Source of the DNA: Octopus sinensis
Lineage: Eukaryota
Direction of reading: 5' to 3'
DNA length: 64,000 nucleotides
Assembly: GCF_006345805.1 (NCBI RefSeq)
Contig: NC_042997.1
Location: 30,690,001-30,754,000 of the forward strand
The notes beneath the pieces are model-generated. The model did no database searches and was not told the DNA's origin. It was given only the letters and a program-made list of their open reading frames with translations. Position 1 is the first letter of the stretch; every line of letters begins with the position of its first letter. Below, piece after piece: positions 30,293 through 63,793 of the stretch. The translations under genes and the position numbers were made by a program.

Positions 30293-31630
30293 CATGCGTT
30301 AAGTGAACATAGACGCAATTGTTTAGTATTTTGATGCCGGGTTGGGTCATTTGCATAGTCCATATCTTAATATGGACTAATGACCTAAAGCCCATTAATT
30401 TAGTATTTCATCACATTTTATTTTATTTATAGAGAAGATAGTTCCTTGGTTTGATTAGTATTTAATGCACAAGAAATACAATAAAAAGTACTTGTTCCAA
30501 CTTCTGTTTAAATATCCAGAGTAACTTCAGTCATGCTCATAGAAAATAGTAGATTGTCTTTTGCCTCTGGATTCATCTAGTTCTTACACTGAAATTACTA
30601 AACCTATGGTGAGTGGTGGTATGTTCTTCACCAATGGAGTCTTGCCTGTGTGTTCACCTGATTGGTATATAACCAAGTGGCTGGCTGACTGGCTGGCTTT
30701 CTGATGTTCATTTTGCAAATGGTTGGGGTTGGGTCAATTGCATAACAGAATTTCAAAAGCCTTGATCCTTCTTTATTTCTTGAACCATATCTGTAGCCTC
30801 AAACATCAGAGCAGCCATCATATTGTTGCCCAAAATGTCCATTAAAACTGGTAACCACGATAACAAGAGTTGCCATCATATGTAATCAAGCCCTGATTAT
30901 GGAGCATAAGCAGAGATATATGTCATGGTCATGTTGTCTATGAATAGCCTAAACTTAATTATTCTATCACACACTCTGTTTTCCTCAATGGCTTATCTAG
31001 GCCGACGAAGGACAATCATCCTGAGACACGTGTCCCTAGATGCAGCCCGGGCGGCCGGGGGTGTTTGTCTCCCCTTCGTAAATGTATATAAGGACACAGG
31101 AAAAATGTGTCAAAGCCATCAGGAGGCGCCGATGCTTCCTAGGGCTATACAGCGGTGGTGTACCCCCCTACTGTCACGTTCGTGTTAGATTGACAGTATA
31201 CAACCATTCTATTGCCCCACCACCGTACATGTCTCTACGAGAGATTTAGAAATTTAGTATTTCTGATTTATCTATCCATTTCTCTATTAGCATCATGTCT
31301 TCTCTACATACCCCCATTGCTGTTGCCAGCCAAAACCATATTTTAATTATCTACTATTCTATATGAGCATGACTGAAGTTACTCTGGATATTCAAGCAGA
31401 AATTGGAGCAAGTACTTTTATTGTTCTATTTCTTATACATTAAACACTAATAAAACTGAGGAATGGAATATTGTTTCATAAGATTGGTGATTAATAGTTA
31501 ACTAAGTGTCTTCTCTATAAATAAAATGTGATGATGAAATGCTAAATTGATGGCCTTTAAGGTCATTAGTCCATATCTTAATAAGTCATCAAAATGCTAA
31601 ACAATTGTGTCTAAGTTCACTTATGCATGA
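30293..31630. repeat. Old inverted repeat, arms about 260-280 bp (30293-30555 and 31350-31630)
   Basis: For example, aatatccagagtaacttcagtcatgctcata is the reverse complement of tatgagcatgactgaagttactctggatatt; arms are diverged. Confidence 0.8.
30995..31041 (+). ncRNA. Minimal hammerhead motif, U4C and A14G variant
   Basis: ATCTAGG-CCGACGA-AGGA caatca TCCT-GAGA-CACGTG-TC-CCTAGAT; perfect 7-bp stem I, GUC triplet. Confidence 0.65.
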
Positions 31631-34164
31631 GCTCAAATATCAAACATCCTTAATGACCGGTATACTACCAACAATATTTTCTGAACATGGTATGAATGCA
31701 GACAACCATTAAAAAAATTCCATAGGGTGGTTACTCTATTATGAATTTAATGTCAAGATTTTAGCATTCAAATTACAGTGTCAAAATGCAATGCACAGTT
31801 TTCAGTTAATTATGCCTCATCTTACAACCTCGAGATTTTGACAATGAGATTATTTATAGGATAGGTGTAGGCAGCAAGATCTGGCCATTTTGAACATGAA
31901 ACAAGCGGAATATTTTTGGCTGGATATGACCAGTTTAAATACCAATGGGTAATGTAAGCGATATTACATAATATAAGCACCAACTGAGATGGAACAAGTC
32001 CACTGAAATTCCAGTGAATCGAAATTGAACCAGCACGGAAAAAGCACCATCCAAATCGTGGCCGATTGCCAGTGCCACCTTGACTGGCTTCCATGCTGGT
32101 GGCACGTAAATTGCACCAATCTGATCGTGATCGTTGCCAGCCTCGCCTGGCACCTGTGCAGGTGGCACGTAAAAAGCATCCACTACACTCACGGAGTGGT
32201 TGGCGTTAGGAAGGGCATCCAGCTGTAGAAACACTGCCAGATCATACCGGAGCCTGGTGCAGCCTTCTGGCTTCCCAGATCCCCAGTCGAACCGCCCAAC
32301 CCATGCTAGCATGGAGAACGGAAGTTAAACGGTGATGATGATACCTATCGCTTCCTGGTTGACTATGCTACCAATTACAATACACAATACCAACCTTCTA
32401 TCACACTGCCTCAAATTAAATATGAAAATTTAATTCTGTTATTTAAAGTATTTAGAGGAGATAAAATACCATCATCATTTAACGTCCATTGTCCATACTG
32501 GCATGGGTTAGATGGCTTCACTAGGCTGGCCCACTGGAAAGGCTGCAGCAGACTCCAGTCTCATTTGGCCGGGTTTTCTATGGCTGGATGCCATTCCTAA
32601 CACCAACCACTCCAAGAGTATAATGGATGCTTTTATGTGCCACCAGCAAGGAAACCATTTGCATGACACTGTAGCATAATTAGTAAAGCAGTTGCTGGAC
32701 AAGCATTAGTTTGAATAGTATGTAGTGGGAGTGCCATCCCAAAGCAGTACTTACAAAGTTCTTACAACAATGATATAATTTTAGTTATAAAGGTACGATT
32801 ATAAATGAATTAGTTTCCCAGGGAAACCAGCAATAGGCGGTATGCAAAACTGTCACAAAAATGAAACTCAATAGGTGAATGTCAAAATAACCAATGTATC
32901 CTTTGAATAGCAATCTTAACTTTATATTTCCAAAATAGAAAGTGTTGGAAATCTAGCAGCAGTAATTTGGCTAAGGAAGATCCAAAATACTCTCCCTTTT
33001 CCTAAGCCATTAACTCCTAATGGAGTGCTGTTGTGATATATGACATATCTAGGCATCTAAAGCTGGTGGAGCCCATCCCTCTGCATATCTGACCAAAGCT
33101 AATTGTTCCAGAAAGAAAAAAAAAAAAGAGAGATGAATTGATACAAACTGAGTTGGTACTTCTTATATTTACTCCAAAGGAATGGAAAGCAAAGTTGACC
33201 GTGACAGGATTTGAATTCCAGTGTTCATTACTCTAACAAATTTGCCATCTATAAAACACCCTTAGAATAATCACAAAAGAACCAACCAACAAACTAACTA
33301 AGGATTTGCTATACAATTACATTTACTCTTTTACTTGTTTCAGTCATTTGACTGTGGCCATGCTGGAGCACCGCCTTTAGTCGAGCAAATCGACCCCAGG
33401 ACTTATTCTTTGTGAGCCTAGTACTTATTCTATCGGTCTCTTTTGCCAAACCACTAAGTTACGGGGATGTAAACACACCAGCATCGGTTGTCAAGCGATG
33501 TTGGGGGGACAAACACAGACACACACATATATATATGACAGGCTTCTTTTCAGTTTCCATCTACCAAATCCACTCACAAGGCTTTGGTCGGCCCAAGGCT
33601 ATAGAGGAAGACACTTGCCCAAGGTGCCACGCAGTGGGACTGAACCCGCAACCATGTGGTTTGTAAGCAAGCTACTTTCCACACAGCCACTCCTATGCCA
33701 ATGTTGTAAAAAAAAAACTGCTACTTTTGAGAACTCCTTAGTTAATGCTATTATCAAATTAATTCTACAAAGTATGGAAGGAAATGGCTACACCAATTTC
33801 ATACTACAATCTCAAACTCCTGCATATTATATATAGCGTAAAAATATGAATTAGAGAAAGGAGAGAAATCGTACTTTATATCATTAAATTGGGGTCTTTT
33901 TAAACTCTTTTTACTTTTCCACTTGTTGAACTGCAGTAATGCTGGTGCACTACATTGAAAAGTTTTCATCGAACAAACAGAAACCCTGCACACTTATTCT
34001 TTCAGATTCTATTGGCAGAATCATCGTTTAGCGTCCGCTTTCCATGCTAGCATGGGTTGGACGGTTCAACTGGGGATCTGTGAAGCCAGAAGGCTGCACC
34101 AGGCTCCAGTCTGATCTGGCAGTGTTTCTACGGCTGGATGCCCTTCCTAACGCCAACCACTCCG

Positions 34165-34390
34165 TGAGTGTAGTGGGTGCTTTTTACGGGCCACCCGCAC
34201 AGGTGCCAGACGGAGCTGGCAAACGCCCACGGATGGATGGTGCTTTTTACGTGCCACCCGCACAGGTGCCAGACGGAGCTGGCAAACGCCCACGGATGGA
34301 TGGTGCTTTTTACGGGCCACCCGCACAGGTGCCAGACGGAGCTGGCAAACGCCCACGGATGGATGGTGCTTTTTACGTGCCACCAGCACG
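34165..34390. repeat. 60-bp tandem triplication inside a family A copy
   Basis: ggtgctttttacgkgccacccgcacaggtgccagacggagctggcaaacgcccacggatggat repeated 3+ times at period 60. Confidence 0.9.
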
Positions 34391-34914
34391 GGGCCAGGCG
34401 AGGCTGGCAACGGCACACTTTTTGTCAAACGGTGGAGTGAACAAACACATACACACACATGCATGACGGGCTTCCATAGTTTTGATCTATGAAATTCTCT
34501 CACAAAGTACTGGTCGCTCCAGGACTAAAAAAAGAAGGCACTTGCAGCACAATGGCACTGAACTTGAAACCCGGTTTGTTCATTTTATAGTAGTTGGTTG
34601 TAATTTTAGCTCACCTTCGGTTTGAGCATCGAGATTTAAGTGATGTAAACTGTTCTCAAAACGAAAGATCGGTGTAATTTTAAAGGAAAATTTACAGAGA
34701 AAAGTTTAAGATTTCTATCCTCCATACAATTTATATTCATCACAGAATTCTTCTCGTGTTTATGTTTAGAATTCTAGTCTTTGATCCATGTTTTAAAATT
34801 GGTGACTAAAAATACTCAAGTTTACTAAATTTCAAACTTTAAGATCAGGTAGTTGGGATTAGAAAGGTCAGCTAACACAAAAAACACTTGATGCATAGAC
34901 ACGTGTAAATGCGT

Positions 34915-62775: not shown

Positions 62776-63161
62776 AAATTCTATAATTATAAGCATAATT
62801 ATAATTAGGGTTCTGCAAAATTTGCTTCACCACATACCGAAATTTAGAAATAGCAGTTAAATACTATTCCACTACCATAAGATATCTCCCAGACAGCAAA
62901 ACCCTACAACTCACGCAGGTGAAGAGAAAAAATAATGAATCAACCCAGCTTTGATTAACTATAAGCCGGGTGGATTTGTTATTTTTTCAATCAAAGCTGG
63001 GTGGATTCATTATTTTTTTTCTTTACCTGTGTGAGTTGTAGAGTATTGCTGTCTGCTTATGGTAGTGGAATAGTATTTAACTGCTATTTCTAAATTTCGG
63101 TATGTGGTGAAGCAAATTTTACTGAAATCTAATTATAATTATGCTTATAATTATAGAATTT
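62776..63161. repeat. Inverted repeat, arms about 175-180 bp, spacer about 32 nt
   Basis: aatttgcttcaccacataccgaaatttagaaatagcagttaaatactattccactaccataag and its reverse complement; related sequence at ~63540-63660 and ~50595-50710. Confidence 0.9.
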
Positions 63162-63703
63162 ATATATATATATATATATATCCGTCACCGTTACCGACCA
63201 GGCTATCAGATGTTGCTACACATCAGTGGTCACAATGCGCTTCACATTGTTTTAGCCTTCAAATGACGCCACCCTGGTGGCTAAGCGAGCAGGCCGACAG
63301 AAGAACAAGTGAGAGAAAGTTGTGGTGAAAGAGTACAGCAGGGATCGCCCCCCCCGCCACTGCTGGAGCCTCGTGGAGCTTTAGGTGTTTTCGCTCAATA
63401 AACACTCACAATGCCCGGTCTGGGAATCGAAACCGCGATCCTACAACCGGTTTTTATATATATATATATATATATGTGTGTGTGTGTGGTGTGTGTGTGT
63501 GTGTGGGTATATATATATATATATATATATAGTAAGCAATGAATTGCCTCACCACACACCGAATTTAGAAATAGCAGTCAAAGAGTTATAGCTATTCTTT
63601 CTACTAAAAGGGAGATCTCAGTAAAAACACAGCACTTGAAAGGCAAACCCAGACAGGTAAGAGAGAATGAAATGACGGCAATCTATTATACAATTTTAAG
63701 TCA

Positions 63704-63793
63704 CCTACGGACGTACGTTTCGAAATCAAGTTTAGGAAAGCATAAGAATTAGATACTTCTACCTTACCCAACTTCTTTTCTCATCAGCGTAGG
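63704..63793 (-). ncRNA. Type I hammerhead ribozyme, intact core
   Basis: CCTACG-CTGATGA-gaaa[stem II, 59 nt]tttc-GAAA-CGTACG-TC-CGTAGG: 6-bp stem I, canonical core, palindromic mini stem III, GUC triplet. Confidence 0.85.

Follow-up and report, generated by a model that had tools for sequence, protein, structure and literature searches.

Why should a short stretch of an octopus genome hold eight hammerhead ribozyme motifs, and how did they come to be there? The stretch in question, referred to here as the window, comprises 64,000 nucleotides (nt) of Octopus sinensis DNA (NC_042997.1, positions 30,690,001 to 30,754,000 of the forward strand), and an earlier note made from its letters had listed the motifs. 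All eight are really present, at or within a few bases of where they had been noted, and each belongs to a different abundant repeat family. With a probability of about 0.85, they are type I hammerheads at the 3' ends of solo, mostly 5'-truncated copies of eight families, likely all pasted in by Penelope-type reverse transcriptase (RT)/endonuclease proteins that favour (TA)n tracts. Self-cutting of the motifs is predicted from their sequence. The families are numbered F1 to F8 in the window order of their motifs (30995, 38746, 47628, 53178, 53505, 54341, 60915 and 63704). Their features are listed below, with the position of C3 given for each hammerhead; PLE denotes a Penelope-like element and pseudo-LTR a pseudo-long terminal repeat.

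30992..31289, plus strand: F1, 5'-truncated solo copy of a putative non-coding retrozyme unit of ~347-361 nt
30997-31039, plus strand: F1 hammerhead (C3 at 31002), family core CCGACGA (U4C), private A14G in the window copy
38592..38814, minus strand: F2, ~220-nt repeat ending in (TA)n
38796-38746, minus strand: F2 hammerhead (C3 at 38789), G3-C8 swapped core, 7-bp stem I with one private mismatch
47515..49246, minus strand: F3, apparent 5'-truncated Hydra-clade PLE between TA tracts, with RT remnants, GIY-YIG frame, 3' region and pseudo-LTR
48413..48850, minus strand: F3 C-terminal GIY-YIG endonuclease frame, 146 amino acids (aa), broken
47629..47687, minus strand: F3 hammerhead (C3 at 47683), core CTGAAGA, 31-nt stem II, imperfect stem III palindrome, U17
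53090..53285, minus strand: F4, non-coding element of ~205 nt bearing TA at each end
53212-53178, minus strand: F4 hammerhead (C3 at 53208), core CCGACGA (U4C)
53380..53656, minus strand: F5, repeat with a doubtful hammerhead
53547-53511, minus strand: F5 hammerhead, doubtful (C3 position at 53545), U3 with A8 or G8, 2-bp stem I, C.C at the stem II base, palindrome broken in the window copy
53660..54511, plus strand: F6, AT-rich repeat, its 3' side cut by another repeat
54344-54463, plus strand: F6 hammerhead (C3 at 54346), 97-nt stem II hairpin, fold z -4.07
60895..61261, plus strand: F7, 5'-truncated repeat ending in (TA)n
60915-61014, plus strand: F7 hammerhead (C3 at 60918), 75-nt stem II, window copy with its palindrome decayed at a CpG
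63535..64000, minus strand: F8, copy of a putative ~582-nt non-coding, terminally redundant retrozyme, running beyond the window end
63793-63704, minus strand: F8 hammerhead, intact (C3 at 63787), core CTGATGA, 6-bp stem I, 8-nt palindrome, C17

Eight motifs in eight repeat families

A strict descriptor found three matches in the window against a mean of 0.18 in local dinucleotide shuffles, and none of 100 shuffles reached three. A second setting gave five matches against 0.53, one of which (42681) is apparently due to chance. Under a setting that allowed two core mismatches, the window had six matches and 12 shuffles averaged 3.7, so that no excess was left. The proposed comparison with shuffled sequence of the same composition thus separates the strict counts, which exceed all 100 shuffles, from the relaxed count, and because the latter is at shuffle level, motif counting cannot alone carry all eight. 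The remaining motifs were confirmed through their repeat families, where the majority sequence has a complete core, stem II and a self-complementary stem III.

The window is repeat-rich animal DNA, and the best match to a named protein, from Argonauta hians, agrees with an octopod source. Searches were made in the 2.72-Gb assembly; 40 candidates were scored per family and the best 25-30 loci fetched, and counts are lower bounds biased to close copies. Each motif retrieved its own high-copy family, with 1,197-3,675 first-look candidates apiece, and solo copies made up 19-26 of the 25-30 loci in each of the five families tallied. Across 1.61 Mb, 266 descriptor matches formed 37 clusters, at least one of them a false positive in a short interspersed nuclear element (SINE). 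The expectation of many independent PLE or retrozyme-like hammerhead families, mostly as solo repeats, is borne out by these families, tallies and clusters. The library of 266 matches yielded no further hammerhead family in the window, only the SINE with its false matches. Some 30 more hammerhead families, many with long stems II, were met incidentally in fetched flanks; a further abundant one, with a U4C core adjoining a palindrome, occurs in L170, L086 and other flanks.

Eight motifs in 33 kb do not amount to a special cluster when set beside DNA elsewhere. The outer flanks of the fetched loci, which are possibly richer in repeats than the genome average, held 23 strict matches in 356,242 bases (0-3 in 10 shuffles), or 4.1 per 64 kb against three in the window; the hammerhead density of the window is ordinary for this genome. 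The motifs follow the TA tracts, of which there are 54 in the last 33 kb and seven in the first 31 kb. Six of the eight elements end within 16 nt of such a tract, so the reported adjacency to (TA)n holds for most, though not for 30995, which lies over 2 kb away.

Family majorities are more canonical than the window copies. All have the complete core C3UGANG8A/GAAA with a paired 3-8 (CG, GC, UA or UG) and A15.1-U16.1. Majority cores are CCGACGA in F1 (35/37) and F4 (21/26), GTGAACA in F2 (26/31), CTGAAGA in F3 (34/39) and F7 (27/27), CTGATGA in F8 (32/36), and CTGACGA or CTGATGA in F6 (24/30), while the 29 F5 cores include TTGAAAA (12), TTGAAGA (10) and TTGACAA (5). The U4C deviation appears in three unrelated families, namely F1, F4 and a subfamily of F3, where many frame-bearing copies carry CCGAAGA and mark its third origin. 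F2 swaps the tertiary pair to G3-C8, and F5 has U3 with A8 or G8. The G10.1-C11.1 pair is present in F2, F4, F8 and, with a bulge, F3; it is replaced by A-U in F1 and F6, U.U in F7 and C.C in F5. Because the family majority sequences carry them, the odd cores are family traits, to which the window copies add private damage (A14G in F1, a mismatched stem I pair in F2, palindromes disrupted in F5 and F7). A-to-I editing was weighed as a possible source of A14G or U4C. Of the "unusually tolerant cores" described at first, the oddity therefore stands, and the loose tolerance gives way to family-fixed, partly compensatory variants plus private decay.

Other structural details needed adjustment. Stem II inserts span 12-97 nt, which retains the upper bound of the earlier range and corrects its lower bound of 11. 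The tiny palindromic stem III ascribed to most motifs is found in the family majorities, that of 47628 being imperfect with one central mismatch. For the stem III segments, folding predicts dimers with energies from -0.2 to -11.1 kcal/mol but no hairpin within a monomer. F7 and F8, unrelated families on opposite strands (60915 plus, 63704 minus), carry an identical 8-nt stem III palindrome, and cross-family dimers would be possible in principle. The weakest of the eight is 53505, whose stem I measures only 2 bp and whose stem II has C.C at its base; it stays doubtful. Not all motifs are minimal: 30995, whose stem I is bulged, belongs to the canonical type I motifs, as stem I and a distal extension covary.

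That covariation comes from 19 distinct F1 relatives, hand-picked from junctions with long interspersed nuclear elements (LINEs); they were selected for core and stem II, with the structure drawn from the same rows. In this alignment 94.1% of cells are paired, against 73.9% when shuffled and 26-48% in slid controls, and there are 88 two-sided changes against 32.6. Two-sided changes occur in 14 of the 17 pairs, which for this clan answers in the affirmative whether family alignments hold stem covariation. Stem I and the distal extension, outside the selection criteria, covary in all ten pairs, and the 3-8 pair is kept as CG, UA or UG in 19/19. Copies of the other families are too uniform for covariation.

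Retrozymes, Penelope-like frames and the route of spread

The firmest link to a mobile element is that of F3, the sole family firmly tied to a PLE frame. The window holds RT remnants and a GIY-YIG frame (48850-48413), the latter 729 nt ahead of the hammerhead core; this GIY-YIG piece has no Pfam match, and a relative gives a weak GIY-YIG match. Of 30 endonuclease loci, 24 have the hammerhead on the downstream side, and the endonuclease itself has 16,953 first-look candidates in the genome. Copies L396-L400 contain a single frame under 3 kb with RT, C-terminal GIY-YIG, DKT and CxCX5C; in L396 a 717-aa frame with DKT and CxCX5C sits between two direct F3 hammerheads 2,578 nt apart. Pseudo-LTR traits are likewise present, in the form of the hammerhead, an inverted arm and (TA)n insertion, the window element ending 2 nt from TA tracts. 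On these features the 47628 motif is assigned as the 3' pseudo-LTR of a Hydra-clade PLE.

Two further families can be tied to frames tentatively. In L130 and L114, F2 stands either behind a Neptune/Nematis-type frame or in inverted orientation to it, and it may be the pseudo-LTR of such a PLE. L228:1300-4300 is a near-complete Neptune/Nematis-type PLE with F2 arms on both sides; it has its own terminal repeat, with a degenerate hammerhead-like motif, by which F2 was ruled out as the pseudo-LTR of that frame. For F7 the link is a single locus, L229, where a Hydra-type endonuclease remnant precedes it by 2.4 kb.

More widespread are inverted upstream arms, recorded in 9/29 F1, 8/23 F2, 9/29 F3, 5/24 F5, 2/28 F6, 2/24 F7 and 9/29 F8 loci, some arm matches being simple repeats. 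Clustered 3' ends accompany the arms in these seven families, and the two traits together correspond to the PLE insertion pattern of the literature. No inverted arm was found for F4 in 24 loci, and this family may move differently from the others. Two local pairings were also rejected: F5 and F6 as the arms of a single element (the window shows no such inverted repeat; back to back in 2/29 loci), and F4 with an antisense second hammerhead (adjacent in 1/25 loci).

F1 and F8 are classed from their organization as non-coding, non-LTR retrozymes with a type I hammerhead. F1 has a non-coding head-to-tail unit with spacings of 347 and 360-361 nt, within the 150-450 bp retrozyme range, and F8 one with an offset of 580-583 nt, above it, terminally redundant in 16 of 30 loci. 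In L056, an F1 copy closely follows a 366-aa frame resembling a membrane transporter exon.

The mechanism proposed joins these elements into one cycle. In tandem or terminally redundant source copies, two motifs would dimerize via their palindromic stem III to cut the transcript, possibly aided by protein, and PLE proteins would copy the RNA into (TA)n tracts. Reverse transcription would start at fixed sites 130-400 nt downstream and usually stop early, which would make the hammerhead the part most often deposited. Solo copies, with no partner in cis, would then decay, as A14G in F1 and the broken palindromes of F5 and F7 suggest. Published work describes minimal PLE hammerheads as cleaving weakly and only as dimers, and in a lizard PLE the hammerhead needs protein and tolerates G3-C8 in part (PMC11167929). 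U3-A8, U10.1.U11.1 and U4C are published natural hammerhead variants, of which U.U is known to be active.

Several results weigh against this account. For the lizard PLE, the one element tested in vitro, PMC11167929 describes cleavage as dispensable for insertion, and U4C reportedly lowers activity in vitro (PMC3088659). The 5' ends of F8 scatter without a pile-up at the predicted cleavage site, and 5 of the 16 redundant copies run past it, which argues against a simple cleave-then-copy model. Seven of the eight window motifs fold no better than shuffles (z above -2), F6 alone being clearly better (z -4.07), and Rfam scans gave no hammerhead family among the matches listed (150 of 193), only microsatellite-driven microRNA matches. 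Covariation was counted for the F1 clan only, in its 19 hand-picked rows. The frame links amount to one locus for F7 and two for F2, and among 25-30 loci with 1.5-kb flanks no linked PLE frame was found for F4, F5 or F6.

The strongest competing explanation, an improbable one to be taken seriously nonetheless, is that cleavage has been lost and the motifs persist as inherited structural relics or as protein-binding folds, with U4C and mismatched stem II bases marking lost catalysis. It would account for the fixation of U4C in F1, F4 and many frame-bearing F3 copies and for the missing pile-up of F8 ends, and Naiad PLEs are published to thrive without detected hammerheads. Against it, the 3-8 pair, GAAA, A15.1-U16.1 and the palindrome survive many compensatory changes, the G3-C8 exchange partly restores cleavage in a PLE hammerhead (PMC11167929), and a viroid with U4C stays infectious (PMC3088659). 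Very improbable is a role in the host for single genomic copies, retained as ribozymes that act in cis on intronic or read-through RNA and cut it. Private non-CpG changes are indeed somewhat rarer at core sites, 14/2,014 (0.70%) against 214/17,864 elsewhere (1.20%; Fisher p 0.046), but the difference is slight and comes from loci picked as best BLAST matches, the window copies bear damaging private changes, and a solo copy has no dimer partner; the deficit does not suffice as evidence of selection on individual copies. An origin by chance, with a relaxed pattern matching AT-rich repeats, for which the two-mismatch count, the SINE family and the marginal F5 could speak, can practically be dismissed in view of the strict count, the more canonical family majorities and the covariation, and is refuted for seven motifs.

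LINE insertions upstream of hammerhead cores

Outside the window, the F1 family led to what is the least ordinary result and the best lead, a relation between LINEs and retrozymes. Four F1 loci have a gag-like frame upstream, part of a 1.6-kb element with only the first open reading frame (ORF1), related to full LINEs. The latter have ORF1 and an APE-RT-zf-RVT frame (Pfam) of the L1 group, with a weak zinc knuckle in ORF1 that falls below the cut-off. The LINE protein matches human L1 ORF2 with E 1.9e-52 and R2 with 2e-23; among the 120 LINE homologues listed there is no named Tx1 reference.

The ends of these elements share a target. Behind the final AATAAA of the ORF1-only element (30 loci fetched of 40 matches), a hammerhead core follows at 25-63 nt in 21 of 30 ends, in 19 of them at 33-38 nt, and five more ends look like a degenerate hammerhead by eye. 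For LINE-A (38 of 40 matches fetched, 33 ends readable, five dropped, three locus pairs being tandem neighbours), the core stands at 33-34 nt in 21 of 33 ends; 11 ends adjoin the 5' end of another LINE and one the first base of U2 (Rfam). For LINE-B, the core is at 87-92 nt in 14 of 30 ends, with another LINE in seven and other sequence in nine. The null expectation is 18/4,000 at 25-45 nt and 147/4,000 within 130 nt, and the shared target exceeds 20% of flanks in all three elements. In L243-L272 and L278-L345, three L1/Tx1-like families occur at fixed sites upstream of hammerhead cores, stacked in tandem.

Target duplications of ~15-18 nt flank the LINEs, and LINE-A copies 97-99% identical sit in targets only 66-69% identical; the differing targets of near-identical copies therefore point to at least four independent insertions. 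Of 23 LINE-A loci, 17 fall in a single target subfamily, and some of these may have hitch-hiked, as exemplified by L358, a truncated LINE-B without duplication and with an inverted retrozyme arm. That the hammerhead is the LINE's own terminal repeat was ruled out by the duplications flanking the LINE, empty sites and divergent targets.

A motif upstream of the junction offers a possible reason for this site. Its pattern was derived from the same LINE-A loci, with six junctions unread; in 24 of the 27 non-tandem loci its start precedes the junction by 58-60 nt, against a background of 15/5,000. It recurs at -59 before the U2 gene and at -57 in F1. At L332:6605-6798, a LINE-A sits at the first base of a U2 small nuclear RNA (snRNA) gene with a retrozyme-target piece at its 5' end, which fits a LINE RNA that starts in the flank. 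Newt satellite 2 is the hammerhead satellite of newts. A promoter of snRNA type is described for it (cited in PMC2220036).

From these junctions, promoter use is what we infer. Somewhat more probably than not, transcription of the 30995-clan retrozymes would be driven by a promoter of snRNA type that the preceding unit carries at its end, and on the same reading L1/Tx1-type LINEs would have specialised on that start, ~30 nt upstream of the core, making use of the promoter and travelling with the Penelope-driven spread. The result would be a three-layer parasite system of PLE enzyme, ribozyme RNA and LINE, the same families supplying natural, amplification-competent G3-C8 and recurrent U4C hammerheads. 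The F1 copy of the window is truncated at stem I and has no LINE insertion. LINE targeting of this kind would make ribozyme repeats a further known target of sequence-specific retrotransposons, and the endonuclease involved would be one whose targets are only 66-69% alike.

The window also contains a 660-bp inverted repeat (57894-58554, arms 98% identical, centre near 58224) and tandem arrays at 9087-12495 (67 bp), 37857-38306 (156 bp), 39306-40562 (159 bp) and 43582-44626 (102 bp). Short frames at 22247-22570 and 25743-26090, without significant Pfam match, presumably resemble Helitron proteins.

Comparison with known systems

Hammerhead variants of the sort seen here are reportedly treated by Lunse et al., and some of the octopus variants may be in print. 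The literature searched, supplements being outside its scope, gave no family-fixed G3-C8, recurrent U4C or stems II of 59-97 nt; for natural G3-C8 hammerheads, the matches listed were engineered mutants alone. No report of octopus ribozymes was among the matches listed, and the main text of a recent octopus repeat annotation (PMC13282606) has no occurrence of ribozyme, hammerhead or retrozyme. Nor was LINE targeting of retrozymes or hammerheads found in the literature searched.

The LINEs nonetheless have close counterparts. Target-specific LINEs of the Tx1 clade include Tx1L, Keno, Kibi, Koshi and Tx1-Mar, and the octopus elements resemble the clade as described there in the APE-RT-zf-RVT frame, a fixed site in a multicopy element, target duplication and tandem stacking (PMC4494074). 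They differ in what they target, a hammerhead repeat and in one case the first base of U2; their placement in the clade is provisional.

For the motifs themselves, the closest parallel is the minimal hammerheads of PLE pseudo-LTRs, which are of type I with a palindromic stem III, number thousands per genome, are mostly single and fall into many families (Cervera and De la Pena 2014, PMC4209133). That account also includes opposite-strand pairs 100-700 bp apart, a U3-A8 variant and a 2-bp stem I in Drosophila virilis. The octopus motifs share the type, the palindrome, the abundance, solo state and diversity, as well as the opposite-strand pairs, U3-A8 and the 2-bp stem I. They depart from the portion of PMC4209133 available in stems II of 59-97 nt as opposed to 6-8 bp, in family-fixed G3-C8 and recurrent U4C, and in A-U, U.U or C.C for G10.1-C11.1 in four families. 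Hydra-clade PLEs have a single frame under 3 kb, a C-terminal GIY-YIG, DKT, a CxCX5C linker, a hammerhead and (TA)n insertion (Craig et al., 10.1101/2021.04.23.441226); F3 matches them in frame, DKT, CxCX5C, hammerhead and (TA)n, and differs from the clade as described there in its great abundance in octopus and its U4C subfamily.

Metazoan non-LTR retrozymes are non-coding, head-to-tail units of 150-450 bp with a type I hammerhead that occur as linear and circular RNA and for which a PLE origin has been proposed (PMC7229834; 10.64898/2026.07.22.740005). F1 and F8 agree with them in the non-coding unit, the hammerhead type and head-to-tail redundancy; unlike those of PMC7229834, they occur mostly solo or as one to two units, not long arrays, F8 reaches 582 nt, and they are known here from sequence alone. 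A coral genome is published to hold over 6,000 hammerhead motifs in 16 families. The octopus extends the known pattern of PLE hammerheads to a cephalopod, and its genome forms a large natural variant library for the open question of what these hammerheads do, in which U4C or G3-C8 cores and stems II as long as 97 nt have reached copy numbers in the hundreds or thousands and lend themselves to direct assay. As hammerhead-rich PLE ends and retrozymes are already described in the available text of PMC4209133 and PMC7229834, the octopus case is largely of a known kind, with new variants.

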